Shown one piece after another: positions 1-51,829 of a stretch of DNA of 56,046 bases (position 1 is the first letter of the stretch; every line of letters begins with the position of its first letter). Source of the stretch: a virus (Duplodnaviria > Caudoviricetes); the IMG/VR virus record IMGVR_UViG_3300027804_000077, positions 1-56,046 of that record. The stretch is one strand, 5' to 3'. The notes below the pieces were generated by a model that was given only the letters and a program-made list of their open reading frames with translations, was not told the DNA's origin and ran no database searches. The translations under genes and the position numbers were made by a program.

Positions 1-1719
1 GTAGCCGTTAAAGTTGGTGATGAAGACACTGAATGGTTTAGTGGTACGTATGAACAAACAAAACAATTCCTACAACGGTTCAACTGGCGTGAGTCTCTTG
101 CGGTTGCTCACAATGCTATGTTTGATGCCGCTATTCTTACTTGGTATTTTGGCATTAAGCCTCGTGGATGGATTGATACACTCAGTATGGCGAGGGCGGT
201 ACACGGCACAGAAGTGGGTGGTAGCTTGGCGACGTTGGCGAAGCACTACCAACTGGGGGTCAAAGGCACGGAAGTAATCAACGCGCTAGGTAAGCGCAGA
301 CTAGATTTCTCAGAAGAGGAACTTGCAAGATACGGCGAGTATTGCGTCAACGATGTTAACCTGACCTATGACTTGTTGCAGTGTCTGTTAAAAGGTTTTC
401 CCCAAATAGAACTGCGGTTGATCGATCTGACGATCAAGATGTATTCGGAACCTGTGCTTGTGCTTGACAAGGTTGCACTAACTGAACACCTAGCGGCGGT
501 GCAGAAAAAGAAAGAGGATCTGTTAGCCAAGGTCACGGTGGATAAAGCAACACTGATGAGCAACCCTCAGTTCGCAGATGTGCTAACAAGCCTTGGGGTA
601 ACACCCCCTACAAAAATTAGTCCCACCACGGGGCGTGAGACCTTAGCACTAGCTAAGAATGACGAAGAATTTAAGGCGCTGGCAGAACACCCTAACCCTG
701 AAGTGCAGGCACTTGTTGCTGCGCGGCTAGGTACTAAGTCAACGCTTGAAGAAACGAGGACTGAACGGTTCATAAACATCGCAGAGCGCGGGAAGATGCC
801 TGTGCCGTTGAAGTATTACGCCGCACATACAGGTAGGTGGGGTGGCACAGACAACCTTAACCTACAGAACCTACCACGACAGTCCCCTCTTAAACATGCC
901 ATCCGTGCACCGCAAGGCTACGTGATGATTGACTCGGACTCCTCGCAGATCGAAGCGCGGACACTAGCTTGGCTAGCAGGGCAGTGGGACTTGGTGCAAG
1001 CCTTCGAGCGTGGGGAAGATGTGTACCGCATCATGGCTAGTGCTATCTACAACAAGCCAGTGGAAGATATAACCAAGGACGAGCGGTTCGTGGGTAAGAC
1101 CACAATCCTTGGCAGCGGGTACGGCATGGGGGCCAAGAAGTTTCAAGCTCAGCTTAAAACTTTCGGTGTAACTATCGCAGAGGAAGAAGCGCAGCGCATC
1201 ATCTCGGTGTACAGGGAGACTTACCCCCGCATCCCCCTGCTGTGGAAGGACTGTCAGAAAGCACTTGTGGCTATCTTGATAGGGCAGAGAGCAGGACTGC
1301 CGGAAGACAAGCCCAAGATATATGCAGAGGGTGAGAACGGTATCAGGCTACCTAATGGGTTATACCTCAAGTATCCCAACCTGCGGATTCACGTCACACC
1401 AGAGGGTAAAGAAGAGTTTGTGTACGATACCAAAAAAGGTAAAGCGGTTATTCCTAACCGCATATACGGTGGGAAGGTAACGGAGAATGTCTGCCAAGCT
1501 TTGGCTAGAATCATCATTGGCGAGCAGATGTTGCTGATCGCTAGGCGGTATCGTGTGGTTATGACCGTGCATGATGCCATTGCTTGTGTAGCACCAAAGG
1601 AAGAGGCAGAGGTCGCTAAAGGTTTCGTTGAACAGTGCATGAAGATGCGGCCCGATTGGTGTGAAGAGCTACCGTTAAACTGTGAAGCAGGCTATGGGGA
1701 AACTTATGGAAGTTGTTGA
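1..1719 (+). CDS. polA: Family A DNA polymerase with 3'-5' exonuclease domain, 5'-truncated
   Basis: Frame is open from base 1 (VAVKVGDEDTEWF...AHNAMFD, ExoII-like). Contains HTGRWG, NLQNLP, motif A DSSQIEAR, motif B RFVGKTTILGSGYG and motif C VHDA. Confidence 0.95.
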   Translation, partial: VAVKVGDEDTEWFSGTYEQTKQFLQRFNWRESLAVAHNAMFDAAILTWYFGIKPRGWIDTLSMARAVHGTEVGGSLATLAKHYQLGVKGTEVINALGKRRLDFSEEELARYGEYCVNDVNLTYDLLQCLLKGFPQIELRLIDLTIKMYSEPVLVLDKVALTEHLAAVQKKKEDLLAKVTVDKATLMSNPQFADVLTSLGVTPPTKISPTTGRETLALAKNDEEFKALAEHPNPEVQALVAARLGTKSTLEETRTERFINIAERGKMPVPLKYYAAHTGRWGGTDNLNLQNLPRQSPLKHAIRAPQGYVMIDSDSSQIEARTLAWLAGQWDLVQAFERGEDVYRIMASAIYNKPVEDITKDERFVGKTTILGSGYGMGAKKFQAQLKTFGVTIAEEEAQRIISVYRETYPRIPLLWKDCQKALVAILIGQRAGLPEDKPKIYAEGENGIRLPNGLYLKYPNLRIHVTPEGKEEFVYDTKKGKAVIPNRIYGGKVTENVCQALARIIIGEQMLLIARRYRVVMTVHDAIACVAPKEEAEVAKGFVEQCMKMRPDWCEELPLNCEAGYGETYGSC

Positions 1720-1942
1720 TTTTGTTGACTATTCTGAGAACGCTATCAAGGTCGAAAAGCTACTTGCGGAATTGAAAAATCTGTTGCTTAATAGGAGGTT
1801 TCAGGAAGCCGTAGAGCTTTGTCCCCTGCTATCCACAGAGGTACGGCTGCTCAATAACAGTATCAAAATAGCCCACGAGAACGATGAGCAATATCAGTTG
1901 GTCGTACAGCAGTCTCAAAACATTCCAGCAATGCCCACGTAA
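1706..1942 (+). CDS. Hypothetical protein (~78 aa)
   Basis: ORF MEVVDFVDYSENAIKVEKLL bridges the polymerase and exonuclease genes and overlaps both. Confidence 0.6.
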   Translation: MEVVDFVDYSENAIKVEKLLAELKNLLLNRRFQEAVELCPLLSTEVRLLNNSIKIAHENDEQYQLVVQQSQNIPAMPT

Positions 1943-2579
1943 GTATTACCATCTTAAGATTAAGAAGGATGTACGGGACTCAGGCAGTGAAGCAACCTTG
2001 TACGGCAAGGAGCTACACAAAGCAGCGGAGGACTACATCAAAGATGATGTGCCCATACCTGAACGATTTGCTTTTATCGAAGGCATGCTTGATTCGCTAA
2101 AAAGGATCGAGGGTACAAAGCACTGCGAATACGAGATGGGGTTGATGAAGGAGGGAGACTTGCTCTCCCCCTGCGGATTTAATACAAAAGGATTCTGGTG
2201 GAGGGGGATAGCAGACTTACTGATCATCAACGAGGACAAAGGCGTAGCGCACCTTGTTGACTACAAGACCGGAAAGAATGCAAAGTTTGCAGACACGCAG
2301 CAGTTAGATGTGCTAGCAGCGGCGACCTTTATCCACTTCCCCAAGATCCACACCGTTAAGTCGGCGTTACTGTTTGTAGTTAGCAAAGAGTTTATCCAGA
2401 AAAAGCACACGGTAGAGATGAAGCTTGAGTATCTGGAGCCACAGATTCAGCAGTTGTCTAGGTTAGAAGCAGCACTTGAGAACGATACGTGGAACCCGAT
2501 AACAAGTGGGTTATGCAGATTCTGTCCAGTGGTTAGTTGTGAGCACAATCCGAAAGGAACTGATCATGCCTTATGTTAA
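1884..2579 (+). CDS. Cas4-like PD-(D/E)XK exonuclease
   Basis: SYSSL...CP start, G.ELH, GIADLL, VDYKTG, QL and C-terminal CRFCPVVSC give the 1+3 Cys pattern of an Fe-S cluster. Confidence 0.88.
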   Translation: MSNISWSYSSLKTFQQCPRKYYHLKIKKDVRDSGSEATLYGKELHKAAEDYIKDDVPIPERFAFIEGMLDSLKRIEGTKHCEYEMGLMKEGDLLSPCGFNTKGFWWRGIADLLIINEDKGVAHLVDYKTGKNAKFADTQQLDVLAAATFIHFPKIHTVKSALLFVVSKEFIQKKHTVEMKLEYLEPQIQQLSRLEAALENDTWNPITSGLCRFCPVVSCEHNPKGTDHALC

Positions 2580-2859
2580 CAAACCTAGACCGTACAAAAA
2601 AGAATATCAACAACAACTAGCACGAGGAGAGAAAGACGAGCGCAGGGTGCGCGAGAGAGCAAGGGATCTGATTGATCGCAAAGGTAAAGACGCTAACGGC
2701 AACGGTAAAGCCGATGTGCGCGAGGGTAAAGACATAGACCATAAACGCCCGATCACGAGGGGCGGTGGCAACAGCAAGAAAAACCTACGCATCACATCCG
2801 CAAGTGCCAACCGATCATTCAGTCGCAACAGCAACCACACAATAAAGCGTAACGACTAG
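2566..2859 (+). CDS. Small HNH endonuclease-like protein
   Basis: DIDHKRPITRGGGNSKKNLRITSASANRS motif; AAGGA ribosome binding site (RBS) upstream of ATG 2566. Confidence 0.8.
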   Translation: MPYVNKPRPYKKEYQQQLARGEKDERRVRERARDLIDRKGKDANGNGKADVREGKDIDHKRPITRGGGNSKKNLRITSASANRSFSRNSNHTIKRND

Positions 2860-2860
2860 C

Positions 2861-4417
2861 ATGGAAGTGATCGATAACAGGGCGCTACTGGTCAGGACTA
2901 AATATCCTGACCGAATAACAGCAGCCATAGAAAAGAGCAAGGTGGTAGGGCAGGAAGATGGGGTGTACGAGGTTGCGGTTAAGTGGGGGCTAAACGAAGC
3001 TCAGCTTCTTAATCAATTCATAAAAGGTGTTCCATCTCCTATATCAAAGAAATACGATTGGCCTGGGCAGTTCACGCCATTCAATCACCAAAAGACTACA
3101 GCAGAGTTCTTAACATTAAACCGCAGGGCGTTCTGCTTCAACGAGCAAGGCACGGGTAAGACAGCATCCGTTATATGGTCTGCTGATTACTTAATGAAGC
3201 TAGGGCTTGTGCGTCGCGTGTTGGTGGTCTGCCCTCTGTCTATCATGAAGTCAGCATGGCAAGAGGATCTCTTTAAGTTTGCTGTACACCGCACATGCAA
3301 CGTAGCCTACGGATCGGCAGCGCAACGGGTCAAGATAGTAGGTAGCTGTGCTGAGTTTGTCATAACAAACTTTGAAGGTGTTGAGATCATCGAAGACGCA
3401 GTCACTGCCGACGGTAAGTTTGATTTGATTGTTGTCGATGAAGCCAACGCTTATAAGAATGTATCGACCAGACGTTGGAAAGTTATGAAGCGTGTGTCGG
3501 ATCGTGCCAAGTGGTTATGGATGTTGACAGGCACACCAGCCGCGCAATCGCCTGTTGATGCTTACGGATTAGCAAAGCTAGTCAACCCAGACAACACGCC
3601 TAAGTTCCTTGGTTCGTTCCGTGACAAGGTGATGCAGAAGGTCAGTCAGTTCAGGTGGATACCCAGACCGAATGCAGAGAATGTCGTGCATCAAGTGCTG
3701 CAACCTGCAATCAGGTTTGAGAAAAAAGATTGTATCGATCTGCCTGATCTTATGTACGTAGAACGAGATGCACCCCTGACTCCGCAGCAGCGCAAGTATT
3801 ACAAGATCCTCAAAGACCAGATGATGATCTCAGCCGGTGGCGAAGAAGTTACTTCTCCGAATGCAGCCACAAGCTTGAACAAGTTGCTACAGATTTCTGG
3901 TGGCGCGGTCTATACGGACACTAGGGAAGTTATAGAGTTTGATGTAGCTAATCGCTTGCAGGTCATCGAGGAAGTTATCGAAGAGGCTAGCCATAAAGTT
4001 TTAGTATTTGTACCGTTCACGCATACCATCGAGTTGCTCAACAATCATCTAACCAAGGCGGGCATAACGTCTGACGTTATCAACGGATCAGTAACAGTTA
4101 ATCGCAGGGCTGCAATCATCAAGAACTTCCAAGAGCAGCCTGACCCTAAAGTGCTTATCATTCAACCACAAGCGGCATCGCATGGGCTAACGCTGACTGC
4201 TGCTAACGTGGTGATATGGTATGCGCCTGTGACTTCTGTAGAAACTTATCTGCAAGCAAACGCTCGCATCAATAGGCCCGGACAGAAGAACACAATGACG
4301 GTGGTGCACATATCAGGCAGTCCAGTGGAGCGCAAGCTTTACGAAATGCTCAAAAATAATATCGATGTGCATTCCCGTATCGTTGACTTGTACGGTCAAG
4401 AGCTTAAAGAAACTTGA
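2861..4417 (+). CDS. SNF2-family (SF2) helicase
   Basis: Walker A EQGTGKT, VVCP, VDEA, LTGTP, HGLTL and QANARINRPGQ motifs. Confidence 0.93.
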   Translation: MEVIDNRALLVRTKYPDRITAAIEKSKVVGQEDGVYEVAVKWGLNEAQLLNQFIKGVPSPISKKYDWPGQFTPFNHQKTTAEFLTLNRRAFCFNEQGTGKTASVIWSADYLMKLGLVRRVLVVCPLSIMKSAWQEDLFKFAVHRTCNVAYGSAAQRVKIVGSCAEFVITNFEGVEIIEDAVTADGKFDLIVVDEANAYKNVSTRRWKVMKRVSDRAKWLWMLTGTPAAQSPVDAYGLAKLVNPDNTPKFLGSFRDKVMQKVSQFRWIPRPNAENVVHQVLQPAIRFEKKDCIDLPDLMYVERDAPLTPQQRKYYKILKDQMMISAGGEEVTSPNAATSLNKLLQISGGAVYTDTREVIEFDVANRLQVIEEVIEEASHKVLVFVPFTHTIELLNNHLTKAGITSDVINGSVTVNRRAAIIKNFQEQPDPKVLIIQPQAASHGLTLTAANVVIWYAPVTSVETYLQANARINRPGQKNTMTVVHISGSPVERKLYEMLKNNIDVHSRIVDLYGQELKET

Positions 4418-4442
4418 CAAAGTCAACTTTATGATTTACAGT
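4414..4442 (+). promoter_or_regulatory. Sigma70-type promoter with a palindrome over the -35 box
   Basis: TTGACA (4414-4419), 17 bp spacer, TACAGT (4437-4442); inverted repeat TTGAC-AAA-GTCAA at 4414-4426. Confidence 0.65.
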
Positions 4443-4473
4443 TAACCCACAAAATAACTTAAAGGAGCGTAGC

Positions 4474-4908
4474 ATGGATGAGGGCATCCAAGACCTTGTG
4501 TCCCCTGAAGAAAAGCAATCTGTCCCTGTGGACAAATTAGCAGGCATCTATATCAAGATTCGAGATGCGCGAGCGAAGCTGAAGTCTGACTACGAAGCGA
4601 AGGATGTTGAGCTTCAAGAACAGATGGACGTGATCGAAGAGCAACTTCTTGAAGCTTGCAAATCAATAGGTGCTGACAGTATCCGCACAGCAGCAGGTAC
4701 TGTGATTCGTAGTGTGAAGAACCGTTACTGGACTAACGATTGGGATTCTATGTACAGCTTTGTACGTGAACACGATGCGTTTGGTTTATTAGAACGGCGC
4801 ATTCATCAAACCAACATGAAGCAATTCATCGAGGAAAACCCCAACTTGTTACCGATGGGTCTGAACACCGATAGTCGGTACAGCATTGTTGTCCGTCGTA
4901 GTAAGTAA
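4474..4908 (+). CDS. Phage replication-region protein with N-terminal coiled coil
   Basis: 144 aa ORF with AAGGAG RBS, lying between the helicase and the SSB-like gene. Confidence 0.75.
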   Translation: MDEGIQDLVSPEEKQSVPVDKLAGIYIKIRDARAKLKSDYEAKDVELQEQMDVIEEQLLEACKSIGADSIRTAAGTVIRSVKNRYWTNDWDSMYSFVREHDAFGLLERRIHQTNMKQFIEENPNLLPMGLNTDSRYSIVVRRSK

Positions 4909-4921
4909 CCAAGAGGAACCT

Positions 4922-5803
4922 ATGTCTAACGTAACTGTATTCCAACAAGACCTTCCCGACTTCCTTAAGAATACCGAAGTCGATGAACTAACCAAGGCGC
5001 TAGCAGGTGGCACACAGAACCGTCGTATCTCTATCAGGGGCGGTCGTTTCCGTCTTGTGATTAACGGCGAAGAAGTATCAAAGACTGACAAGCCTGAGCT
5101 TGACGTAGTTGTTGCAGCAGGTCGCAAAGAGAACTCGCGCATCTTCTATGCTAAAGCTTATAACCCCAAGGATATTACTCCTCCTGATTGTTGGTCTGAT
5201 GATGGTGTAACACCGCACCCCAAGGCTGAGAATCGCCAAGCTGATACGTGCGCTAACTGCCCTCAGAATATCGCAGGGTCTGGGTCTAACGGCACTCGTG
5301 CTTGCCGCTATCAAAAGCGTCTTGCAGTTGTGCTTGCAAACGATCCGACTAATGGGTTGTTCCAATTGACGCTGCCTTCGCAATCGATCTTCGCCAAGGG
5401 TGATATGGATTCGATGGGCTTTGATCAGTACGCTAAGTACATCGCAGGTAATGGCAAGAACATCAACATGGTCGTAACTCGCATGTCGTTCGATGGTGAT
5501 AGTGATGTGCCCGTGCTTAAGTTCCGTGCAGTTGGTTACGTGAACCGTGAGCAGTACGATGCAGCTATCGAAGGTGGTAATTCGCCAGAGGCACAGCGCA
5601 TGCTTTCTTCTACCGTGGCGCAGACTGACAATGTTAAAGCGTTACCCAAAGCTGAAGCTAAGCCTGCCGCTAAACCTGCTGCTAAGCCAGTAGTTGAAGA
5701 GATCGAAGAGCCGGTGAAGCGTCCAAGCAAGAAGGCTGAAGCTGAACCTGAAAAGAAGCGAGACCTGACAGCGGTTCTCGATGCTTGGGGCGACGATAAC
5801 TAA
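4922..5803 (+). CDS. Putative ssDNA-binding/annealing protein
   Basis: GAGGA RBS; CWSDDG...CANCP...ACR Cys cluster; Pro/Ala/Lys linker and acidic-aromatic tail (DAWGDDN); replication-module context. Confidence 0.6.
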   Translation: MSNVTVFQQDLPDFLKNTEVDELTKALAGGTQNRRISIRGGRFRLVINGEEVSKTDKPELDVVVAAGRKENSRIFYAKAYNPKDITPPDCWSDDGVTPHPKAENRQADTCANCPQNIAGSGSNGTRACRYQKRLAVVLANDPTNGLFQLTLPSQSIFAKGDMDSMGFDQYAKYIAGNGKNINMVVTRMSFDGDSDVPVLKFRAVGYVNREQYDAAIEGGNSPEAQRMLSSTVAQTDNVKALPKAEAKPAAKPAAKPVVEEIEEPVKRPSKKAEAEPEKKRDLTAVLDAWGDDN

Positions 5804-5804
5804 A

Positions 5805-6032
5805 ATGGCTATCGGCTACAGTCAACAGCTTATCAGTGACAACAAAGCTGCGGACAAGCGGAAACTCGGAGTCTTATTGGGTAGGGTGTGCATCAAGCAC
5901 AACATTTCTGTAGCCGACGTTGCGGCGTACTTCAGTGTCAGTAGGCAGACAGTCTACAACTGGTTTAGAGGCACTGAGGTACGTCCAATCTACAGGGATC
6001 TGATGAGTCGTTTTATCAGCAGCTATCGGTAA
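5805..6032 (+). CDS. Cro/XRE-like helix-turn-helix protein
   Basis: SVADVAAYFSVSRQTVYNW HTH signature. Confidence 0.8.
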   Translation: MAIGYSQQLISDNKAADKRKLGVLLGRVCIKHNISVADVAAYFSVSRQTVYNWFRGTEVRPIYRDLMSRFISSYR

Positions 6033-6054
6033 TGCTTGCCGGAGGATTTGCAAA

Positions 6055-8859
6055 ATGTCGGCGCTTGAGTTGTTATCTGCGGTGCATGCACCGGAGGGGT
6101 GGCGCTGTGTAGTAGGTATAAAGAACAAACGAGTCATCAAGAAATTTGTTGAGTCTGCTGAAGAAGTTATACAGGCGGGGCAGCAGTTGGTGGACGATGG
6201 GTTCGATGCTTACTATGCCTGCGCTACGTTTAAGGAACCAACCACAAGATCAGGAGACAACACCAAAGAGTTCCGTGCACTCTGGTTAGATATAGATTGC
6301 GGAACAGACAAACCTTATGAAGATCAAACGCAAGGCATCGCGGCACTCAAAACTTTTTGTAAGGACAACGCATTACCAAGGCCGACACTTGTCAACAGTG
6401 GGCGCGGCATACACGCATACTGGACATTCAAAACCCCAGTAGCACCTGCTGTATGGCAACCCGCTGCGGACAGGTTGAAGGCACTATGTGAAGAAGGGTT
6501 CCTCAGTGCTGACCCTGCATGCACAGCAGATAAGGCGCGGATACTGCGTCTGCCAGATACAAAGAACCTCAAAGATCCAGACGACCCGCTTGATGTAACG
6601 CTGCTATATACAGGCGAGCCAGTTGACTTTGAGGAGCTAAGGCAGACTCTTGGTGTTCTAGTTTTTAAGGAAGAAGTACCAGACTTCCTACCACGTCAAG
6701 TCAATGAGCTAACGAAGTCACTTGCCAATAACCGCGAGTTCCACTTCAAGACTATTCTGATTAAGACAGATCGTGACTTTGGTTGTAATCAGATTAAGTA
6801 CATAACAACGCATCAGCAGGAGATGTCTGAGCCGATATGGAGGGCGGGGCTTTCAGTTGCACAGTATTGCGTAGACAGAGATGTGGCGATACACGCCATA
6901 TCAAAAAACTACGAGCAGTACGATCCAGACGAAACCGAGAAGAAGGCTAATCGGATTAAAGGCCCATACGGTTGCGCTACGTTTGAAAAGTTTAACCCCG
7001 GCGGTTGTGACGAGTGCATACACAAAGGCAAGATCAAGAGTCCTATTTTGCTTGGGCTTGAGATTGCTGAAGCTACAACTAACGAGATCATTGAAGAAGC
7101 AAAAGACGATGAGCCTGCGATTGTTCATTCCGTACCCGAATACCCATTCCCATATTTTCGGGGTAAAGCAGGGGGTGTTTATAAACGTCCGATCTCGGAG
7201 GAGGAAGACGCGCAGGTTGTGTACGAACACGATCTTTATGTCGTCCGAAGGATGGTGCATCCGATTGAAGGCGAGATGGTTGTGTTCAAACTTCATCTAC
7301 CACAGGATGGAGTAAAAGAATTTTCTGTACCGCTTACGTCAGTTGTCGTTAAAGAAAAGCTGCGCGAGGCGCTAGCAGAAAAAGGGGTAGCAGCAACAGC
7401 TAAGCAACAAGAACTACTGCTTGGCTACATCATGACATTCGTTAAAGAACTACAGGTAAGCAGAAAGGCTGACAAGATGAGAACACAATTCGGATGGTGC
7501 GACGGTGACAGTAAGTTCATCGTTGGTGATAGAGAGATAACGGCAACGGGCATCCACTACAGCCCCCCATCGGCATCCACCGATCAGTTTGCGCCAAACA
7601 TGGTTGCAATAGGTGAGTTTGATAAATGGAAAGAATGCTTCAACGTCTACGGTAAGGAGGGATTAGAACCCTATGCTTATGCTGCGTTAACAGCATTTGG
7701 TAGCCCCCTACTAAAGTTTACTGGGATTCGTGGTGCTGCTATTAACTTAATCAGTGGTGACTCAGGTCCAGGTAAATCAACGATCCTTCGTGTTATTAAT
7801 AGTGTGGTCGGCAAACCCACGGAACTTATGTCGATGTGGAAGGATACGCAGAATGCAGTAGCTCGCAAGCTTGCTATCTTTAATAACCTATGCCACACAT
7901 ATGATGAAGTTACCAAGGTTCCTGCTGAAGACATCGGATCGCACTTGTACCAAGTAACCCAGGGTCGTGACAAAGAGCGAGCGCAGGCAAGCGTCAACCA
8001 ACTCAGATCAAACACCGAGCGGTGGGAGCTTATAGAAATTATGACTTCCAACGCTAGTCTTTACGACAAGCTACAGATAGCACGGGACTCGGTAGACGGA
8101 GAGATGATGCGGGTCTTTGAGTATGTGATTTATAGCAGCGGGTTGGATGAACAGTATGCCAAACAGATGTTTGATGTGCAGTTGGAGAGCAACTACGGTC
8201 ACGCCGCCGACATCTACTTCTCCTACCTTGTCAGCAACAAAGATTACGTTATCAACATGGTGCGCTCAGTTCAAGCCAAGATTGATAAGGAAGTCAGACT
8301 GACTTCTCGTGAGCGGTTCTGGTCGGCACTCATTGCTTGCAACATAGCAGGGGGACTTATCGCCAAAGAGCTTGGGCTTCATGACTTCAACATGCGGAAC
8401 ATTTATGTATGGGTTACTGAGCAGATCCATGTTCTGCGTCAGCATGTGCGTCCCCCGCTCGATAATGTAGCAAGCGTCATCGGTGACTATATCGGTAGGC
8501 ACATGCAGAACATCCTTGTCGTCAATGCAGAGGTTGACTCGCGAACACAGATGTCCGCTGCACCAATCTTAGAACCCAAAGGTCCGCTGTATATACGATA
8601 CGAACCAGACAGCAAGCGGATGTATATCAATGCTAAACACTTCAGAGCAGACTGCGCCAAGGCTCAAATAACTTACAGGGAACTTACTCGCAAGTTGGAG
8701 AAAGACAAGGTACTGATTAATTCTGAAGTTAAGCGCATCACCAAGGGCATGAAGATCACAGCGCCACCTGTCTACTGCTTGGTGTTTGATTGCACGAACG
8801 GCAACTTCCTCGACGTTGAGGAAATGATAGTACCTGCCGATGCTAGTACACCAAGTTAA
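6055..8859 (+). CDS. Primase-helicase (AEP-type primase, DUF927-like region, P-loop helicase)
   Basis: LWLDID, SGRGIHAYW and ARILRLP primase motifs; Cys cluster; QFGW; Walker A GDSGPGKS and Walker B TYDE. Confidence 0.85.
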   Translation: MSALELLSAVHAPEGWRCVVGIKNKRVIKKFVESAEEVIQAGQQLVDDGFDAYYACATFKEPTTRSGDNTKEFRALWLDIDCGTDKPYEDQTQGIAALKTFCKDNALPRPTLVNSGRGIHAYWTFKTPVAPAVWQPAADRLKALCEEGFLSADPACTADKARILRLPDTKNLKDPDDPLDVTLLYTGEPVDFEELRQTLGVLVFKEEVPDFLPRQVNELTKSLANNREFHFKTILIKTDRDFGCNQIKYITTHQQEMSEPIWRAGLSVAQYCVDRDVAIHAISKNYEQYDPDETEKKANRIKGPYGCATFEKFNPGGCDECIHKGKIKSPILLGLEIAEATTNEIIEEAKDDEPAIVHSVPEYPFPYFRGKAGGVYKRPISEEEDAQVVYEHDLYVVRRMVHPIEGEMVVFKLHLPQDGVKEFSVPLTSVVVKEKLREALAEKGVAATAKQQELLLGYIMTFVKELQVSRKADKMRTQFGWCDGDSKFIVGDREITATGIHYSPPSASTDQFAPNMVAIGEFDKWKECFNVYGKEGLEPYAYAALTAFGSPLLKFTGIRGAAINLISGDSGPGKSTILRVINSVVGKPTELMSMWKDTQNAVARKLAIFNNLCHTYDEVTKVPAEDIGSHLYQVTQGRDKERAQASVNQLRSNTERWELIEIMTSNASLYDKLQIARDSVDGEMMRVFEYVIYSSGLDEQYAKQMFDVQLESNYGHAADIYFSYLVSNKDYVINMVRSVQAKIDKEVRLTSRERFWSALIACNIAGGLIAKELGLHDFNMRNIYVWVTEQIHVLRQHVRPPLDNVASVIGDYIGRHMQNILVVNAEVDSRTQMSAAPILEPKGPLYIRYEPDSKRMYINAKHFRADCAKAQITYRELTRKLEKDKVLINSEVKRITKGMKITAPPVYCLVFDCTNGNFLDVEEMIVPADASTPS

Positions 8860-9034
8860 CTTCAACATTAACTGGCGCAACTTTGTGAAGGGTAGTTCGT
8901 TTTTTATACCCTGCTTAGATTGCGCTGCGGCCAAAGTTACGATCCGCGAGGAGATGCGGCGGATGCGTTTTAAAGTTGTTATGAAGACAGTAATTGAGGA
9001 AGGCATCCAAGGGGTTCGCGTTTGGAGAGTTTAA
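8840..9034 (+). CDS. Hypothetical protein (64 aa)
   Basis: Overlaps the primase stop; GSSFFIPC and GVRVWRV; last gene of the + operon. Confidence 0.65.
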   Translation: MLVHQVNFNINWRNFVKGSSFFIPCLDCAAAKVTIREEMRRMRFKVVMKTVIEEGIQGVRVWRV

Positions 9035-9049
9035 CTGTATACTCCACCG

Positions 9050-9120
9050 CTGTAGTCCATGCTGTCTCCTCAGACTCACGACGAGTCTTTTCATCCCCGC
9101 CCTCCTGCGGGGATTTTTTT
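9050..9120 (+). ncRNA. Candidate small RNA with anti-SD/anti-start-codon seed
   Basis: TATACT at 9038-9043; seed TCCATGCTGTCTCCTC at 9056-9071; hairpin AGACTC-ACGAC-GAGTCT at 9072-9088; terminator whose loop is CCTCCT. Confidence 0.4.
9093..9120 (+). terminator. Intrinsic terminator between the convergent replication and late operons
   Basis: ATCCCCGC-CCTCCT-GCGGGGAT followed by a T run. Confidence 0.85.
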
Positions 9121-12100
9121 ACTCTTTAGCTCTCAGCTCTAAGAGTTCGCGTCGGTTCATTGGGTTGGCTATATACAACCCTTGGTCTACGGCACGTTCC
9201 TGCCTACGCCTAGCTTGATCCGACTGCATGATGGTTACAGGGAGGATTCGACGGTTGGGAAACTTACTGTTGAACTTATCAATATCTTCCTGAATATCAT
9301 CGGGGTCTTCGTCAGAAATACCCCGCCGCGCATAGACCGAACGCTTCAGCAGTTCTGTGCGCTCTTCTTCCCGTTCCTGTTCTAGCTTCTTAAGCTTAAA
9401 GTTCTCAGTTTGTTTCGCGGACACTTTGATTGGGGCGTACCCAATACTTTGCATGGCTATGTCCATCCAGTTCAAATCTTCTTGCGCTACAACCTCGTAG
9501 CCTTTTGGAGTCTTTACTCCTTCTTCGCTAAAGCGATACGCTTTCAGCGGTTGCCTGATGAACGCAGGCATCATGGTCTCGATAGCCCTCTCGGTTTGCC
9601 CTTCTTTGAACCTGTCGTACGCACGTTGGGCATTCTCAAACATACCGAAGCTTGGGCCGAGCAACCCTTTAAACTCCCAATCTTGGAAGAACAGATCGTT
9701 AAGTTTGACCCGCGAGTTAAAGTCTGCACCTGTTAGCCCAGTGACCGGACCCATAGCGACGTAGGTTGCTACATTTGCGCCAAAGTTTTCGGACAGCCAC
9801 TTCTTAAACCACAAATCAAATCCGTACTTGCGTATCTGGAAAGCTGCACTGTCTTCGTCATCGTCATCATCACCAAATGCACTTAACACCTTCTCGGCAA
9901 CGGTAGACATCACGGTGTACAACGGCATACCCGTCAGACCTGCAAACATACCCGTCATACCGAGCGTACCAAAGAAGCGCGTTGCAGCTTGCTTCCTAAT
10001 CGTAGGATCTGCGCCTTTGAACATTTGCAAGAAATTAGTCGTGAGATAGAACGCCGTGTTCTGTGAAAATTTCTTGAACTGGAATATGGTTCTGCCAACC
10101 GGCCCACGGAAGTATCTGGGTGTATCAAACATGGAGTAGTCGTACATCGCATCATGCGTCAGATCCAAAGCTTTTTTAGTAGCTTCATCATGCGACAAAC
10201 CTTGACTGCGTCCTAAGCGATAAGCAGCCATAGCCATCATCTCGCGGGGTAGTTGTTCCGTCATGGAGAACAACGTAGAGACAGCATCGGTTGCAGCCTG
10301 AACAGGCACTTTCAAAATGTTAGGGTTAGTAGCTTCCTGAGAAGGAGACTTGACGATATTGAGCAAGTCCATTGAGCGGTTGAATGAGAAAAGGTTGTCA
10401 GCCGCAAACTCATCGTAAGCCTTAATCTCATCAGCATTGGTCAACGCATTGCGTATGGAAGGCATAACATATTCAGTCTTACCATTAACCTTGCGTCGGA
10501 ACCCAACTTCCTTGTAGACATTCATAAACCGCACAAGCTCTTTGTGCACATCCTTTGCGCCACCAGGAGTCTTGCCATACTCAGCAAGCAGTGTGGGATA
10601 GCCAAACACAGGCAGCGAAGTCATGTTCGTCAGAGCAGACGAGATCGAACTCATATAGTAGAAGAAGTTAAGCGTCGATAGTCCGTTGGCTGCAAAGTTC
10701 AGGATAGAGTTTTCGTTCTTAGGATTAACAGCAGCGTCAAAGTCGCCTGCTACTTCTTCGATATAAGGACGGTACTTAGATGCGTCAGGGTCATCCTTGA
10801 TAGACTCTCTTGCTTCGTCAAGTGTGTTGACGATCTGGGGTTGGTACTCCATCTTGGCAAGTTGATTGGACATACGGAAACCCGCAGTGCCAAAGTTCCG
10901 TAGTGCATCTGCGCTAAAACCTGCTGTGTTTTTACGATGGATAAACTGTTTGCGGAAGCTTTTCTCTGGCAGCGTGAGCAGATACATCTGATAGATCTCG
11001 TCTTTGATCGATGCCTTATCAGTGTCGATGCCTAGCTTATCTACAGCAGCAAGAACTTCTTTTAGCTTCGTCGTATCAGCAAAGCTTTCTTCCATCATGT
11101 TCTTAAGCTGATCACCACGCTTGAGCGTACCGTCGGCGTACAAATCTTTCAGAGGCTTGCCCATCTCCTTAGCTCTACGGATGGCGAAGCGGTTGCGCTC
11201 TGAGGCAGACTCAAACATATAAAACTCCATGTCTTTGCCTTTGCCAACACGCAACCAGTTCTCTCCATATCTCATAAGAGGGAAGTAAGGCTTAGCAACT
11301 TTGTCCGACTCAAATTGTTTCTTGAGCAGATCCATGAACTTGGTTTTTTCCTCATCGGAGATCCCCATCATTTCAATGCGTTTATTCAAAAGATCTTTAT
11401 ACGTTTCATATTGCTTAGCGTAGTAATCACGTACATCGATATAAATCTTGCGCCCCGGTTCACCAAGCTTTTCCCATAGATCATCCAAGGTATCTGACTG
11501 CGGCGTAGATGCAAGACGATCTTTACCGGGGATGCTTGGGTCTATGCCGTTAACTGTAGAGAGGTGCATGATGGTGGCAAGCAACTGACTTTGTTCACGG
11601 TCGTTGCGTTGAAGCTTAAGCCACGGCTTCATAACATCTTTCATCTCATCGACATACTGCTGGCGCTTGGCGTTGAACTTCCGACCAAGATCGACCACAC
11701 GAGTAAGCGCAGGGATTTTGTCTTTAACAAGTTTTGCAAGTTGGCTAGGAGTAAATGCACCAAGAATATGTTTCCTAGCACCAGACATAGCACCTTCTGC
11801 AATAGCACCAGCAAGCTCTGCCTGACTAGATAGATCCATACCGTTAGCTATAGCTTGGTTCAGCGCAGATACAGATGGGCCTTGGCTACGAGGCGTATTG
11901 ATTACGTCGTTAGCATATTTGACTTGCACATCGGCAGCGGTCTGTACGTCTTTTTTCTGGGAGAGTATTTCTATTTTAGCCTGCGCGTCGGCAACGGAAG
12001 GCTCCAGTGACAAGAGCGTATCTGTTACTTCAATAAGGTTAGCAAGCGCAGACTCATCGTTTTTACTAAGCCCAAGTAGCTGTCTAATCGTAGCTACAAA

Positions 12101-15100
12101 AGTGCTCATGACGCTTTGCGTTTTGCCAAACTGCACTGTGCTTAAGAACTGCTGAAAGTCCCCATCAGTCATACCGTAGGTTAAAAACTCATACACATTG
12201 GTTAGAGCTTTACCTTTGGTGAACTTTTGATCTAAGCTCTTTACAAATTCTTTGTATGGATGACCATTAGGAAGCTTAGCCGCATCATCGGCTGCGTCCC
12301 GTGCAGCCGCCATTAACCGTACTAATTTACGATACGCAAGCGCCCTTGGGTCTGCGCTTCTAGGGTCAGCTTTTACAATCTGCTCACCTTCGTAGATTTT
12401 TACCGCAGTCCCTGCATGTAGTAGCTCGTGCAAAACAGTCTGGTTATTTACGCCTTGCCCTACCCCTGACAGACCGCTCCCTGCTACAACAATCATATCG
12501 TTAGTGGGTATGAACACCCCTCTAGCTTTTAGTTTCTTGAAATTATCAATAAGCCCTTGCTTAGACTTGTTAGAGACAATTACGAATTTTATATTCCCTA
12601 ACGCAGACACTAATTTTTGTGCCAAGGTGCGTTCAAACTTATTGCTCTTAGGATCTTTTGCAATAATCTGGGCAGCGTCTTTACCTGTCTTAGGCGCACC
12701 GGCTTCGATCTTTGGATTTAAGGCAGGGCTGGTTGACTGTAATTCCGTTTCTGAAATATCTGCCTGAGCAAGAGCACCAGGACCACCTTCTGGTTTTACG
12801 AACGTACGCTTCTTTACCTTAGTAGTAACGACAGGTGCAGGGCCAGTGGGAGCCTTGGGTGTGACTATGGGTTCTTCGCTAACAGCTTCTGTTTGCTCTA
12901 CAGGCTTAGTCTCTTCTTTACGGCGTTCAGCTCGCGCTATGATGCCCTTTTTAATATTGCTAGGACCACGCTCAAAATTACTCATAGCGAGATCACGGAT
13001 GCGAGTGTTTGCATACCTTGGATCAGTACCAAGGCGGTACAGCTCTTCCAAAACAGGGAGCACTCTCTTAGTTATATAGTCGTTAAGAGTTTCTGTTCTA
13101 GTTTCTGGATTACCAATGTTTGCAAACTGACCCTCAATACCTTTCATAAAAGTATCGTGGTACTGCTGCATGGAAGCTTTAGATTCGGGTCTTGGGCCAA
13201 GGAACAGATCCAACATCGTAGCCAAGCCGGGGCGGTCAGAACCTTTTAGCTTCTTAGTAGAAAGAATAATATTTTCAATTGCGTTAAGTTCCTCAGTACG
13301 CATCCCCGACTCAACAGCACGAGCTTCTTTTTCTTCCTCAGTCAGCTTAGGTTTCGGACCACGTTTAGGCGCAGGGCCAGTAGGCACAGCATCAGATCTA
13401 ACTTTTAGAAACGCATCTTTTAAGTTAGTGCCAAGAACTTCTTCCTCACCATTTACACGCCTAACCCACTTAGGCTTACGCCCTTCACCTACATTCGTAA
13501 TAGTAACGGTCTCTCCGTTTGAGAGCACAAGATCTTTTGTATTTTGGCCGTTTGTATTCTTGCCAGGATACTGATTAATAATTGTTACTTGAGGGGCTGC
13601 TGCTTTTGGTACACCGGCAGGTTTGGCTGCTGTGGCAAGTTTTGCCACTTTTGTTCCTTCAGCAGGCGCTGCTGCTCCTTCTTCTTTTGCTTGCTTGGTT
13701 TCAGTGGGCGTAGTGACACTGGGGATTTCCTTTGGGGGTTGAGTTTTTTCTTCTACTGCACCGGATGGTACTTCCTCTCCTCGTACAGTTGGTTCAGCAG
13801 GACGTGCAGGGCGTTCCACTCCACCGGCGACAGGTGGCTCAACTCCTCCGGTGGGTACTCCTCCGTCGGGTCGGCTAGGAATTGGAACGCTTTCTCCACC
13901 TCCTTGTTCGATAGCTTTAGCAGCATCTTCTGCCTCCTTTCCGGCTTCGGCTTGAATTTCTGCAAGTTCGGATAGAGCTTGGTCAGCCTCTTGGTCGTTT
14001 CGTTCCTCTTCCGCAGCCTGAGCAGCGGCTTTGATTTTGGCTTGATCAGGGGAATCTCCAGCAGCTATGTATTCGTCAGTAAGTTCATTAATCCTAGAAG
14101 TAAGCGCATCAACTTTAGTAGCAGCTTCCGCTACTTTTTGTTCTGGAGTTGCTTGCTCAGCTAACTTTTCTTGTGCTGCTTGAGTAGCAGCAGTTAATAC
14201 GTCACCAGCAGTAGCAGGTTCTTTAGCAAGCTCTTGCGTCCTAGCAGCAATGTCTTCTACATTTACCGCAGCGGCTTTCCCTTGAAGATCTTCTTTCTGC
14301 TTTGCTAGCTGCTCTGCATCAATCTTGGCTTGTGCTTCATCAATTGCAGAACGTTCTTCGGGAGTCTTTGCTTCCCTGCGTCGCTCAATGTATCGACCAG
14401 CAGGAGAAAGTGCGCCACCAAGAACAGCACCACCAATAAAACTTTCAACGTACTCTTTACGAGCATCAGCATCTGCAATGTTTAACCCAGCTTGTAGACG
14501 CTCTAAAAATTGTTGCCCTGTCTCAGTAGCACCTTCAACACCCGCAGCTTTGCCTGTAGCTAAAGAGTAATCAGCAAGTGTGCGACGGAACCCTTGCTCG
14601 GCAAAGTTCTTAGCTTGTTGTTCAGTGACTTCTTTACCAACAGACTTAAACAACCCACGCACTAGTGGGATAGCTTTCATACCAACAATATCTAGCGCAG
14701 TCTGTGGTATGGCAGCGGCAACGGCGCTACCTAAACTTGTTTGTTCAAGCCCCGCATTAGGATTAGTGCGCTTTACTTCGTCAAGCTGTCTCGCAAGATT
14801 AGTACCTGTGAACTGCGTAGCAGACACTAAACCAGTTGCGCCCAAAGTGGCTAATGTAGCGGCAGTACCCGTAACAGGAAGCGCAGCGGCACCCGCAGCC
14901 GCAGCAATAGGTGCAGCCATATAAGGTAATGAACCACCCAAAGTCTCTTTAAATTTTTGAAAAGGCGCTTCAGACCAACCCTTTTCAGTAGGTGTGAATA
15001 CCCTCTGGGCTTCTGCTTCGCGCTCTGCTTGATAACGCTCGGCTTCTTTAAGATCCATTAGTCCTGCTTTACCAGCAGCAAGCGCAAGCGATCCTTTGAG

Positions 15101-15361
15101 TGATTCATACCCTGCCTTAACAGCGGGGACAAACCCTTCCTTATCTTCAGGAGGAACTTCTAAGGGTACACCGTATTGTTTTTTGACAGCAGGAGCAGCA
15201 GTGCTTAACCCAAAACGCTGCCGTATGGCAGCTTTGGTAGCGTCATTAGCATCTACATAATTAGAATCCTGCGGAGCGTACTTATCAAAGATAGCTTTTT
15301 TTGTAGCAGGATTTGCGTTGATGTAGTTGGGGTCTTGCAGGATCTCCAGCAGTGTCGGCAT
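9119..15361 (-). CDS. Very large internal virion/ejection-type polyvalent protein (2080 aa) with zincin-like HExxH motif
   Basis: Last late gene; HELLH motif (~12416-12430) with downstream EF; Gly/Ala-rich hydrophobic N-terminal region; Pro/Glu/Lys linker; helical C-terminus. Confidence 0.75.
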   Translation of the reverse strand: MPTLLEILQDPNYINANPATKKAIFDKYAPQDSNYVDANDATKAAIRQRFGLSTAAPAVKKQYGVPLEVPPEDKEGFVPAVKAGYESLKGSLALAAGKAGLMDLKEAERYQAEREAEAQRVFTPTEKGWSEAPFQKFKETLGGSLPYMAAPIAAAAGAAALPVTGTAATLATLGATGLVSATQFTGTNLARQLDEVKRTNPNAGLEQTSLGSAVAAAIPQTALDIVGMKAIPLVRGLFKSVGKEVTEQQAKNFAEQGFRRTLADYSLATGKAAGVEGATETGQQFLERLQAGLNIADADARKEYVESFIGGAVLGGALSPAGRYIERRREAKTPEERSAIDEAQAKIDAEQLAKQKEDLQGKAAAVNVEDIAARTQELAKEPATAGDVLTAATQAAQEKLAEQATPEQKVAEAATKVDALTSRINELTDEYIAAGDSPDQAKIKAAAQAAEEERNDQEADQALSELAEIQAEAGKEAEDAAKAIEQGGGESVPIPSRPDGGVPTGGVEPPVAGGVERPARPAEPTVRGEEVPSGAVEEKTQPPKEIPSVTTPTETKQAKEEGAAAPAEGTKVAKLATAAKPAGVPKAAAPQVTIINQYPGKNTNGQNTKDLVLSNGETVTITNVGEGRKPKWVRRVNGEEEVLGTNLKDAFLKVRSDAVPTGPAPKRGPKPKLTEEEKEARAVESGMRTEELNAIENIILSTKKLKGSDRPGLATMLDLFLGPRPESKASMQQYHDTFMKGIEGQFANIGNPETRTETLNDYITKRVLPVLEELYRLGTDPRYANTRIRDLAMSNFERGPSNIKKGIIARAERRKEETKPVEQTEAVSEEPIVTPKAPTGPAPVVTTKVKKRTFVKPEGGPGALAQADISETELQSTSPALNPKIEAGAPKTGKDAAQIIAKDPKSNKFERTLAQKLVSALGNIKFVIVSNKSKQGLIDNFKKLKARGVFIPTNDMIVVAGSGLSGVGQGVNNQTVLHELLHAGTAVKIYEGEQIVKADPRSADPRALAYRKLVRLMAAARDAADDAAKLPNGHPYKEFVKSLDQKFTKGKALTNVYEFLTYGMTDGDFQQFLSTVQFGKTQSVMSTFVATIRQLLGLSKNDESALANLIEVTDTLLSLEPSVADAQAKIEILSQKKDVQTAADVQVKYANDVINTPRSQGPSVSALNQAIANGMDLSSQAELAGAIAEGAMSGARKHILGAFTPSQLAKLVKDKIPALTRVVDLGRKFNAKRQQYVDEMKDVMKPWLKLQRNDREQSQLLATIMHLSTVNGIDPSIPGKDRLASTPQSDTLDDLWEKLGEPGRKIYIDVRDYYAKQYETYKDLLNKRIEMMGISDEEKTKFMDLLKKQFESDKVAKPYFPLMRYGENWLRVGKGKDMEFYMFESASERNRFAIRRAKEMGKPLKDLYADGTLKRGDQLKNMMEESFADTTKLKEVLAAVDKLGIDTDKASIKDEIYQMYLLTLPEKSFRKQFIHRKNTAGFSADALRNFGTAGFRMSNQLAKMEYQPQIVNTLDEARESIKDDPDASKYRPYIEEVAGDFDAAVNPKNENSILNFAANGLSTLNFFYYMSSISSALTNMTSLPVFGYPTLLAEYGKTPGGAKDVHKELVRFMNVYKEVGFRRKVNGKTEYVMPSIRNALTNADEIKAYDEFAADNLFSFNRSMDLLNIVKSPSQEATNPNILKVPVQAATDAVSTLFSMTEQLPREMMAMAAYRLGRSQGLSHDEATKKALDLTHDAMYDYSMFDTPRYFRGPVGRTIFQFKKFSQNTAFYLTTNFLQMFKGADPTIRKQAATRFFGTLGMTGMFAGLTGMPLYTVMSTVAEKVLSAFGDDDDDEDSAAFQIRKYGFDLWFKKWLSENFGANVATYVAMGPVTGLTGADFNSRVKLNDLFFQDWEFKGLLGPSFGMFENAQRAYDRFKEGQTERAIETMMPAFIRQPLKAYRFSEEGVKTPKGYEVVAQEDLNWMDIAMQSIGYAPIKVSAKQTENFKLKKLEQEREEERTELLKRSVYARRGISDEDPDDIQEDIDKFNSKFPNRRILPVTIMQSDQARRRQERAVDQGLYIANPMNRRELLELRAKE

Positions 15362-48391: not shown

Positions 48392-48609
48392 GCAAAAGGA
48401 GGTTGGGACTCCTGACGGGGGGTATTTCTATATAGAAGGGTAGGGTCAGATTGTGGAAATTTTTGTAGGGGGTGGGGGTGTTTTTAAAACACATTATTGG
48501 ATACGCGGAACAGTATGTACTAGCGCGGCGGTGCGTCAAGTCTAGGTTTGGGGGGGTCGGGATAGGGTGGGTAATACCTTATACGTATTTTGTTATGGCT
48601 AGGGGCTAA

Positions 48610-48629: not shown

Positions 48630-49022
48630 GCGAAGCGAAAGCCGAGCGATCATCGGGTTAGTCCTACGGGATTAGCAGGAAAGCGAAAGCCTACCGTAAC
48701 AGATAGCCTACTGGGTTATTTCAGCGGACTGGCAAAAGTAGCTAACCAACCGACAACCGTTCATTAAAAACTTGGAACGATCATGCCGCAAGGCGACTAG
48801 TGTGAGCATACCGCTAGTGATCCGCTGATGCCGTGCGAGAAACGGGCATTGATGCCGCTATCGGGCTAGAGCAGGAAACGGTAGCGAGGTTACCCTTTGC
48901 AAGCTTCCGACTAAAGCTTTCGGATCGTATCCGATTGCCCATAAGTCAGTAATGCAAAGGGTACACCAGTGAGCGTATTAATTTCTAGTACGTTCACCCG
49001 TGTAATTCTAACCTTCGGAGTT
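48628..49022 (+). ncRNA. Large structured RNA or leader of unknown class
   Basis: At least ten stems with G-U pairs, UNCG and GNRA tetraloops, and nested long-range helices (see findings). Confidence 0.7.
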
Positions 49023-49028
49023 TTCAAA

Positions 49029-49517: not shown

Positions 49518-49525
49518 GGATTACA

Positions 49526-50180: not shown

Positions 50181-50200
50181 TTGTGGTATAATGTAATCAA
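50181..50200 (+). promoter_or_regulatory. Early promoter 2 (extended -10)
   Basis: TTGTGGTATAATGTAATCAA contains a perfect TGnTATAAT. Confidence 0.8.
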
Positions 50201-50224
50201 AAACAAGTAAGCAAAGGAGCAAGC

Positions 50225-50311: not shown

Positions 50312-50356
50312 GGTGCAAGCAACCAGTTCCGAGAGCAAGGAGAGCGAGTAACGCTT

Positions 50357-51824: not shown

Positions 51825-51829
51825 CAGAT

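Follow-up and report, generated by a model that had tools for sequence, protein, structure and literature searches.

The 84-base gap between two convergent gene modules of a tailed phage (Caudoviricetes) contains, in our confident judgement, a conserved functional RNA element encoded on the + strand. The gap (9035–9118) belongs to the IMG/VR record IMGVR_UViG_3300027804_000077, a phage record of 56,046 bases that was analysed whole and is called the window below. We consider it probable that the element is an autoregulatory small RNA (sRNA) directed against a translation start site, namely that of the first gene in the replication operon at whose 3′ end the sRNA gene lies. This first gene encodes a protein of 144 amino acids (aa), and the predicted sRNA would cover its Shine-Dalgarno (SD) sequence and start codon. 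Three results computed here carry the argument: a cassette conserved across relatives, covariation within a hairpin of the RNA, and covariation between the 5′ part of the RNA (the seed) and the start region of the 144-aa gene.

The predicted sRNA gene directly follows a 64-aa open reading frame (ORF) and has the following parts:

9015–9020, + strand: −35-like hexamer TTCGCG, weak (3/6), 17 bases 5′ of the −10 box and within the final codons of the 64-aa ORF.
9038–9043, + strand: −10 box TATACT, 3 bases past the stop of the 64-aa ORF and unchanged in 7/7 close relatives.
9049–9120, + strand: predicted sRNA of ~72 nucleotides (nt), its 5′ end placed by the −10 box.
9049–9071, + strand: single-stranded seed containing CCAUGCUGUCUCCUC, assigned from sequence and fold, with variants in relatives.
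9056–9071, + strand: CU-rich stretch TCCATGCTGTCTCCTC, read directly from the sequence.
9072–9088, + strand: hairpin 1, AGACTC/ACGAC/GAGTCT, with 6 pairs and a loop of 5; all 6 pairs vary on both sides.
9093–9120, + strand: intrinsic terminator with an 8-pair stem (9093–9114), loop CCTCCT and seven T to 9120, doubling as the operon terminator.

The initial annotation of this DNA, made by a model from the letters alone, had pointed to the TATACT, the CU-rich stretch, the hairpin and the terminator, and all four are in place. It had read seed, hairpin and terminator as the layout of an sRNA gene on the + strand. This proposal is backed by conservation, by compensatory changes in hairpin 1 and by the co-occurrence of −10 box and terminator. 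When folded alone, 9049–9120 reaches −22.5 kcal/mol (z = −3.2; equalled by 1 of 200 shuffles), with both hairpins formed and the first 23 bases mostly unpaired; the seed (9049–9071) is also open in the centroid fold. The conserved −10 box suggests that the sRNA may have a promoter of its own. Two further elements of the proposed layout do not generalize. An anti-SD sequence in the terminator loop and an anti-AUG CAT next to the CU core are both present in the window, but CTCC or CCTC occurs in the loop of only 11 of 58 unique element-bearing relatives, and CAT lies 3–9 bases before the core in only 21 of the 58. Hence, the CAT and the CU-rich terminator loop are features of a clade and not of the whole family.

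Close relatives of the gap were collected by a search with the neighbouring primase, which gave 22 loci and an alignment of 11 unique sequences (A2). Identity of the gap to the window is 0.82–0.96 in seven relatives, L003–L009 (L003 0.90, L004 0.96, L005 0.93, L007 0.90, L008 0.82 and L009 0.88). Third codon positions in the + strand flanks (the primase gene and the 64-aa ORF) are 0.48–0.78 identical and those in the − strand flank 0.56–0.93 identical, and the corresponding value for first and second codon positions of the + strand flanking genes is 0.84–0.99. The gap is close to these first and second positions and is therefore constrained like positions that determine amino acids; judged by this comparison, it is under purifying selection. 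The two-hairpin structure pairs 92.0% of cells in the alignment, compared with 80.8 ± 1.7% after shuffling (0 of 500 shuffles equal it), and pairing drops to 39.7–61.7% when the 3′ partner is slid by 1–3 columns. All six pairs of hairpin 1 have changed on both sides among the 11 unique relatives. The terminator says less, with four of its eight pairs invariant and uninformative. A U-G pair in L003 and L005 would be C-A on the opposite strand, which fits an RNA read from the + strand. A covariance model built from the alignment (R1) recognizes one strong copy in the window, at 92 bits, and every other match scores at most 14.6 bits.

How widespread is the cassette? Relatives were sampled through alignment of the neighbouring 64-aa protein and not through the RNA, keeping 80 of at least 563 relatives in a metagenome collection and 80 of at least 492 in a viral collection. 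The first set, from 80 metagenome loci and 9 others, comprised 77 unique downstream sequences, or 72 once five shorter than 90 bases were dropped; the second set added 51 further unique viral loci. A + strand intrinsic terminator lies at most 130 bases from the stop codon in 58 of the 72. CTCC or CCTC is found 5′ of the terminator in 55 of these 58, compared with 28.9 ± 3.7 in shuffles (maximum 41 in 500), and GGAG or GAGG in only 6. A −10 box, defined as at least 5/6 matches to TATAAT including A2 and T6 in a 16-base window at the stop codon, occurs in 39 of the 58, its start lying 0–6 bases past the stop codon's first base; 27 of the 39 read TATACT. Random 16-base windows taken as a control have such a box in a mean of 0.2 of 58 (maximum 3), and none of the 14 first-set loci without a terminator has one. 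The second set repeats the pattern, with a terminator in 43 of 51 loci and a −10 box in 34 of the 43 and in 0 of the 8 without a terminator. Across both sets, the cassette is present in 101 of 123 unique loci, which come from uncultured freshwater, estuarine and marine phages. At the −35 position, at least 3/6 matches to TTGACA are seen in 72 of 85 element-bearing unique loci and in 7 of 22 loci without the element, a contrast that is confounded by relatedness. Several relatives bear two or three CU motifs, and the 64-aa ORF is also present at loci that have no sRNA. The −10 box, the pyrimidine core and the terminator are gained and lost jointly, so they behave as a small gene rather than as a mere 3′ untranslated region (UTR). 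As far as comparison of sequences can tell, the cassette is a real family of phage small-RNA genes.

What is the target of the predicted sRNA? The candidate site and its gene are:

4462–4485, + strand: proposed target, running from the SD through the spacer and AUG into the first codons of the 144-aa gene, put forward on duplex rank and on covariation with the seed.
4474–4908, + strand: target gene, encoding the 144-aa protein of a viral family (DUF7307 / Pam3 gp33-like), assigned by a protein atlas and PHROG.

Seed duplex energies were computed with 9049–9073 against 79 start regions called by a simple heuristic, some of them wrongly (the helicase starts at 2861, not 2963). The start at 4474, where the site at 4463 reads AGGAGCGTAGCATGGA, ranks 2/79 by seed duplex and 6/79 by full dimer fold, and the start at 52933, which belongs to a gene for a 288-aa protein, ranks 6/79 and 3/79. 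The dimer fold with the 144-aa start has 19 intermolecular pairs, joining 9049–9070 to 4463–4485, for a net gain of −17.3 kcal/mol. The top match of each ranking was rejected. That of the seed duplex, at 25215, probably involves an internal GTG rather than a true start. That of the dimer fold, at 48478 (in G-rich sequence at 48455–48480 in a divergent intergenic region; −33.1 kcal/mol), pairs with the C-rich arm of the terminator and was set aside as an artefact because the terminator would have to open. Window ranks and shuffles leave the question undecided, and thus the window alone names no target. The initial annotation had described the seed as antisense to the phage's own starts and had named five sites; this is borne out for the one at 4463 and not for the other four as a set.

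Compared across relatives, the generic-looking anti-SD motif is seen to conceal what appears to be a dedicated target, visible only at that scale. An orthologue of the 144-aa gene is present in 28 of 30 viral records fetched; in the two records without it, the sRNA locus is less than the usual 4.3 kb away from the contig end. In close relatives, the start region retains GTAGCATGG and the facing seed letters are CUGU or CUAC. The CUAC variant pairs perfectly with the start region, and the CUGU variant pairs with it through two G-U pairs. In L017, whose protein is 56% identical, the spacer is altered and the seed is altered to match, and L015 has 12 contiguous seed-start pairs. Seed cores track their own start region: GCUCCUU faces AAGGAGC, UUUCCUU faces AAGGAAA, and UACCUC faces GAGGUA. 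Exact complements between seed and start extend up to 14 bases, with at least 9 bases in 22 of 34 lineages and at least 8 bases in 28 of 34.

Eleven of the 34 lineages (L003, L005, L007, L186, L155, L159, L175, L153, L170, L172 and L161) were dropped as near-duplicates, leaving 23 representatives in which sRNAs and start regions were permuted. The mean energy of the duplex between an sRNA and its own start is −25.84 kcal/mol, compared with −20.83 ± 0.74 kcal/mol for permuted partners, and the mean longest exact complement is 8.57 bases, compared with 6.60 ± 0.26 bases; in both cases 0 of 100,000 permutations reach the real value. Among the 23 start regions, a lineage's own comes first in 8 lineages by energy and in 12 by longest complement; by energy, it falls to tenth place or lower in L008, L017, L151, L185 and L206. 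A control within genomes used the sense strand of each locus (2–15 kb) with the sRNA gene masked, in 22 representatives. The longest exact complement of the locus falls within the 29-base start window of the 144-aa gene in 11 of the 22 and is the unique longest in 8, where chance would give ~0.007 per lineage. A control gene gave a different result. For the start of the 288-aa gene (52933) in 17 lineages, the longest complement is reached by 3122 of 20,000 permutations, which is not significant, and the energy by 61 of 20,000, a modest signal; the 144-aa gene in the same 17 lineages is reached by 1 of 20,000. Thus, the seed co-varies with the start of the 144-aa gene, and by longest complement it shows no significant covariation with the start at 52923/52933 that had been proposed alongside it. 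Given the modest energy signal at the 288-aa start, a second target is possible in some lineages, and a second CU motif in several relatives fits the 288-aa gene.

The arrangement of the operon gives the predicted pairing a place in a regulatory circuit. The features concerned, in addition to those above, are:

4414–4442, + strand: predicted operon promoter TTGACA-17-TACAGT (10/12), the best + strand promoter-like site in 1–9300, directly 5′ of the target gene.
8840–9034, + strand: 64-aa ORF, last cistron of the replication operon, with the sRNA gene, where present, directly after it.
9119–9121, − strand: stop codon of the convergent gene for a 2080-aa LPD39 protein, overlapping the T run of the terminator.

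The sRNA terminator (9093–9120) is the only strong + strand terminator in 1–9300, the other call (5887) being a weak 5-pair stem. The promoter at 4414–4442 and this terminator bracket both the target and the sRNA, and hence the sRNA closes the unit that the target opens. TTGACA-type sites are also found upstream of 144-aa orthologues, and the same order, strand and ~4.3 kb spacing recur in G007 and G008. In the mechanism that we favour, 9049–9120 would be a trans-acting RNA made from its own sigma-70-type −10 box, or released from the 3′ end of the operon transcript, or both, and it would end at the terminator that closes the replication operon. Its open 5′ part would base-pair across the start of the first cistron, from −11 to +11, blocking entry of the ribosome at the 144-aa gene. 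The outcome would be negative feedback on the 144-aa protein that is independent of the downstream primase and is possibly polar (Rho-mediated) on later cistrons. The transcription start, the pairing in the cell, the repression and any requirement for a chaperone are predictions from the DNA. As a separate observation, the operon −35 lies within a palindrome, TTGAC AAA GTCAA (4414–4426), and similar palindromes precede the orthologue in distant relatives; this could be the operator of a regulator.

Several points weigh against the proposed mechanism. First, the lineage representatives and the start codons were chosen by the analyst, with starts taken by best SD score. Second, some lineages fit poorly. 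The longest complement is 5 bases in L151, 6 in L149 and 6 in L008 (5 if the terminator is removed), and the own start ranks 10th–11th of 23 by energy in L151 and L008 and 4th in L149. Third, the 144-aa start is no clear standout within the window, ranking second by seed duplex but only sixth by dimer fold. With CAUG and CUCCUC fixed and the other seed letters shuffled, 0.12–0.17 of 300 shuffles do at least as well. The longest exact complement in the window, of 11 bases, lies elsewhere, at 52976–52986, 44 bases into the coding region of the 288-aa gene; it is not conserved in G001 and G002. Fourth, a promoter scan calls no promoter at the sRNA gene, where the −35 hexamer matches at only 3/6 positions. 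Fifth, contigs from four RNA runs, out of six RNA runs among 24 runs in all, cover the gap (X16, 8982–9241; X15, 9069–9239; X17, 8938–9084 and 9055–9199; X18, 8465–9084), and being assembled contigs they do not allow ends, strand or level to be read. The contig end shared at 9084 looks like an assembly branch point, because two X17 contigs overlap there by 30 bases. Sixth, two tests do not favour pairing as RNA. Transitions compatible with G-U pairing and incompatible ones are equally frequent (65 and 65), and the (+,+) duplex outscores its mirror (−,−) in 14 of 23 lineages (Wilcoxon p = 0.28). The case for the + strand is thus made by three features: the T run, the direction of the −10 box, and a partner that is itself a start region on that strand.

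The alternative that survives best, which we nevertheless think unlikely, is a general anti-SD RNA like the "toxic" double-hairpin RNAs of Burkholderia. Its CUCCU core would dampen many host and phage messenger RNAs (mRNAs), and the fit to the 144-aa gene would be one case of many. The seed does have a general affinity for phage starts: its mean of −15.96 is matched by none of the reverse complements of the 79 real starts (−12.24 ± 1.57; 0/79 as extreme). The presence of two or three CU motifs in several relatives is in keeping with a broad activity, as is the modest energy signal at the 288-aa start. There are also sub-threshold, full-length matches to RF02278, the Rfam family of Betaproteobacteria toxic small RNAs, at 29.6 bits in the window and at 28.2–29.4 bits in two of six relatives searched. 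However, the core is not a fixed anti-SD sequence but moves with the spacer and SD flavour of one gene. In 6 of 6 viral records, the 9-base complement of the commonest core does not occur outside the sRNA gene.

The next alternative, also unlikely and ranked second, dispenses with a trans-acting RNA altogether. The gap would be a 3′ UTR with a terminator, and its match to the 144-aa start would be an inverted repeat in DNA, maintained by gene conversion or by a protein that binds both sites, or would reflect a contact in cis between the 3′ UTR and the 5′ leader. A terminator is required there regardless, a single predicted transcript contains both leader and sRNA, and the wobble and strand tests, with their null outcomes, do not speak for pairing as RNA. 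However, a plain 3′ UTR does not explain why the −10 box tracks the terminator cassette, being absent from all loci without a terminator (0/14 and 0/8). In addition, the complementary stretch spans an SD and a start codon, a classical sRNA target, and a protein operator would be expected to retain one motif rather than drift in step across more than 20 lineages.

The model of the initial annotation, in which the RNA silences a group of early genes with a start signature in common, AGGAGC(A/T)AGCATG, is quite improbable, although the signature itself is real. The motif AGGAGCWAGCATG occurs at 50215, 50881, 51427 and 52923, always at an ORF start; these 4 copies compare with a mean of 0.20 in shuffles, and 0 of 100 shuffles reach 4. 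AGCATG that could pair with the seed is also found before or across the starts at 4474 and 2861, the start at 52933 ranks well, as noted above, and its orthologues in G001 and G002 retain ACAGCATG. As a definition of the target set, however, the signature is not supported. The three starts with the exact motif AGGAGCAAGCATG rank only 10, 26 and 31 of 79 by seed duplex, affinity is not significantly raised by the spacer letters, and the 52933 orthologues of 17 lineages give no significant longest complement. Other features of these starts are recorded here for their own sake. AGCATG lies at or across the start codon of six + strand genes (50215, 50881, 51427, 52923, 2853–2866 and 4466–4478), three of which share the 13-mer. 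The helicase start at 2861 has AGCATGGA in common with the target leader, and in L007 and L009 it is complementary to the seed over 9 bases. An extended −10-like sequence, TGGTATAAT, at ~50184–50192, upstream of a small ORF that runs from 50225, is conserved in G001 and G002 and is probably an early promoter.

The last alternative, a − strand ribosome-binding site (RBS) with a mini-ORF (MDYSGGVYS, 9060–9031) translated from late-operon read-through, is very improbable: the ORF exists, its start signal is very good (GAGGAG and ATG, 5 bases apart), and 10 of the 11 unique relatives collected with the primase keep 5–6 bases between SD and ATG, but it is rejected as a coding gene because one-base indels shift the frame to give unrelated peptides (9, 46, 9, 26, 9, 32, 22, 24, 24 and 12 aa in 10 relatives) and L015 and L016 have no start codon at the site, while CAT is retained in only 21 of 58 family members and the T run, −10 box and U-G pairs are all features of the + strand.

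How does the predicted sRNA, acting on the start of the 144-aa gene, compare with known systems? No Rfam family reaches its gathering score anywhere in the window. The best match is RF02278, whose gathering score is 50, and the sRNA was not placed in that family because its 29.6 bits fall short of this cut-off. Among the relatives, L029 scores 29.4 bits and L035 28.2 bits, and the other four of the six searched have no match at E ≤1. Excerpts of two papers describe the Burkholderia double-hairpin "toxic" sRNAs as 57–92 nt long, with CU-rich unpaired stretches that face RBSs, and report that overexpression attenuates growth (PMC5688073, PMC4603805). As in the RF02278 RNAs, to the extent that excerpts of Sass et al. 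(2017, PMC5688073) portray them, the phage sRNA is a short RNA of two hairpins, the second a terminator, with a CU-rich unpaired stretch complementary to RBSs. Unlike those RNAs, for which the same excerpts give 3–5 chromosomal copies in Burkholderiales, it is present in one copy in a phage and has a core that co-varies with one target. The RF02278 model and the phage sRNA have in common the letters UGUCUCC, UUCA and the terminator, whereas the first hairpin of the model is skipped in the alignment of the phage sRNA.

The proposed circuit has a counterpart in OppZ and CarZ of Vibrio cholerae, which excerpts of Hoyos et al. (2020, PMC7398697) present as autoregulatory sRNAs derived from 3′ UTRs. 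Like OppZ and CarZ as presented there, the phage sRNA lies at the 3′ end of an operon, shares the operon terminator and is predicted to pair with a cistron of the same operon, giving negative feedback. Unlike them, again on the content of those excerpts, it is in a phage, its predicted target is the first cistron, and it has no sequence similarity to them. Its −10 box also suggests a promoter of its own in place of, or beside, processing by RNase E.

Antisense control of an RBS has further precedents. The C4 model, RF01695, is not among the four Rfam matches at E ≤10 in 8500–9700. The c4 RNA is encoded in one operon with its target. According to excerpts of a 2025 review (PMC12197685), c4 antisense RNA of phages P1 and P7 binds around the RBS of a gene of its own phage, and matching changes in RNA and target set its specificity. 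The phage sRNA resembles c4, as c4 is characterized in those excerpts, in being predicted to be antisense to an RBS of its own phage, with matching changes in RNA and target. The two differ in position and setting: c4 is found 5′ of its target and regulates an antirepressor of temperate phages, whereas the phage sRNA gene closes an operon, within a replication module. A second precedent is icaR of Staphylococcus aureus, in which the SD of an mRNA is paired with a pyrimidine anti-SD motif in that mRNA's own 3′ UTR. The icaR contact acts in cis on a monocistronic mRNA; in the phage, the distance is ~4.6 kb and a separate promoter is likely.

A survey of literature on phage-encoded sRNAs, anti-SD RNAs and UTR-derived autoregulation found no phage sRNA of this layout. 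A host 3′ UTR sRNA that acts on phage CTX has been reported, as far as the excerpted account goes. The excerpts of the 2025 review (PMC12197685) name about a dozen characterised phage sRNAs, nearly all from cultured temperate phages of enterobacteria and vibrios. The phage sRNA described here differs from known cases in being a compact, recognisable gene that is widespread in uncultured phages and in having a predicted target that changes in step with its seed. What would follow if the predicted mechanism were confirmed? First, autoregulation from the 3′ end, so far described for bacterial operons, would extend to the replication modules of phages. Second, the many natural variants of seed and target would amount to a ready-made set of compensatory mutants. 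Third, the 144-aa DUF7307 protein would be flagged as one whose dose is tightly controlled by the phage.

Two more speculative readings concern the convergent position of the cassette and its origin. On the − strand, there is no T run 3′ of the hairpins, and therefore late − strand transcripts may run on into the sRNA gene, antisense to it and to the replication operon. The cassette could then be an RNA-only timer in a convergent junction that is common to a large group of aquatic phages. An sRNA made early or in the middle phase would throttle the first replication cistron, and late antisense read-through would supply a perfectly complementary partner that removes the sRNA, or would collide with its transcription, resetting the brake. 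This is an appealing scheme to which we give little credence. A related idea would make the "toxic" double-hairpin RNAs on the chromosomes of Betaproteobacteria domesticated relatives of phage RNAs like this one.

The 144-aa protein belongs to PHROG 13900 (E = 1.9e-23). The label of that family, "minor head protein", was rejected because it is not supported by the position of the gene in the replication module. In a protein atlas, the 144-aa protein has a feature score of 0.98 with DUF7307 / Pam3 gp33-like clusters, 33–38% of whose members carry PF23984. Pfam matches are sub-threshold (18.4 to a Mu Gam/Sipho_Gp157-like family and 18.0 to DUF7307, with a cut-off of 27 for each), and a search for solved structural relatives found none, the best match having E = 0.65. 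The 64-aa ORF next to the sRNA gene overlaps the 3′ end of the primase gene by 20 bases. Its protein matched no Pfam or PHROG family. An AlphaFold model is confident (predicted local distance difference test score, pLDDT, 94) and has a small beta-alpha-beta-beta fold; compared with the PDB, it has no match at E ≤0.001 (best E = 0.23), with ACT-like proteins, ribosomal protein S8 and KhpB-like proteins among the weak matches.

The phage record is estimated to be 89% complete and has a G+C content of ~48%. Genes lie on the + strand in 1–9034 and 48969–56046 and on the − strand in 9119–48325. Gene directions flip at 9034/9119, and thus the sRNA locus falls between two modules, in their convergent gap. 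The + strand replication module encodes a family A DNA polymerase, a PD-(D/E)XK nuclease, an SNF2 helicase and a DUF927 primase/helicase (934 aa), followed by the 64-aa ORF. On the other side of the gap, the 2080-aa protein with an LPD39 (large polyvalent protein) domain is encoded at 9119–15361 on the − strand. Phage DNA is nearly whole (≥0.93 of sampled words) in 14 sequencing runs, 13 of which are labelled freshwater, lake, river or drinking water, the remaining one being labelled with a coded organism. A nucleotide search of a cultured-phage collection with 8000–10500 gave zero matches, and a transfer RNA scan of the window found none. The primase protein has only distant cultured relatives, at ≤29% identity (Pseudomonas phage Rollin and Rhizobium phages), which are uninformative on the host. 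Host labels from a genome collection (Actinomycetota, Bacillota, Nanopelagicales and a beta proteobacterium) were rejected because all four relatives, among 28 pattern hits, are metagenome-assembled bins. A gene trio at 51830–55061 encodes an AAA-type ATPase (PHROG 1297), a 288-aa protein that matches DUF3150 weakly, and a putative metallopeptidase/VWA protein (DUF2201). The last of these is labelled "HNH endonuclease" by PHROG, and the trio resembles a MoxR/VWA-like module.

Elements of similar appearance occur outside the group. In an unrelated group of phage contigs, a similar cassette stands right after a 462-aa ORF (L046, 1497–1597; also L029, L037, L043 and L044). It has TTGCAA-17-TATGAT, a hairpin with a UCUCCUU loop and a terminator starting UUCAUCCCCG, and it scores 29.4 bits against RF02278; its loci contain no complement of more than 8 bases. 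A 22-base terminator pattern (TTCATCCCCG, a gap and CGGGGATTTTTT) is found in the unrelated phage contigs L024, L025, L028, L030, L038 and L045, where a rough count gives ~0.1 expected. A common type of terminator or host background may explain this recurrence.

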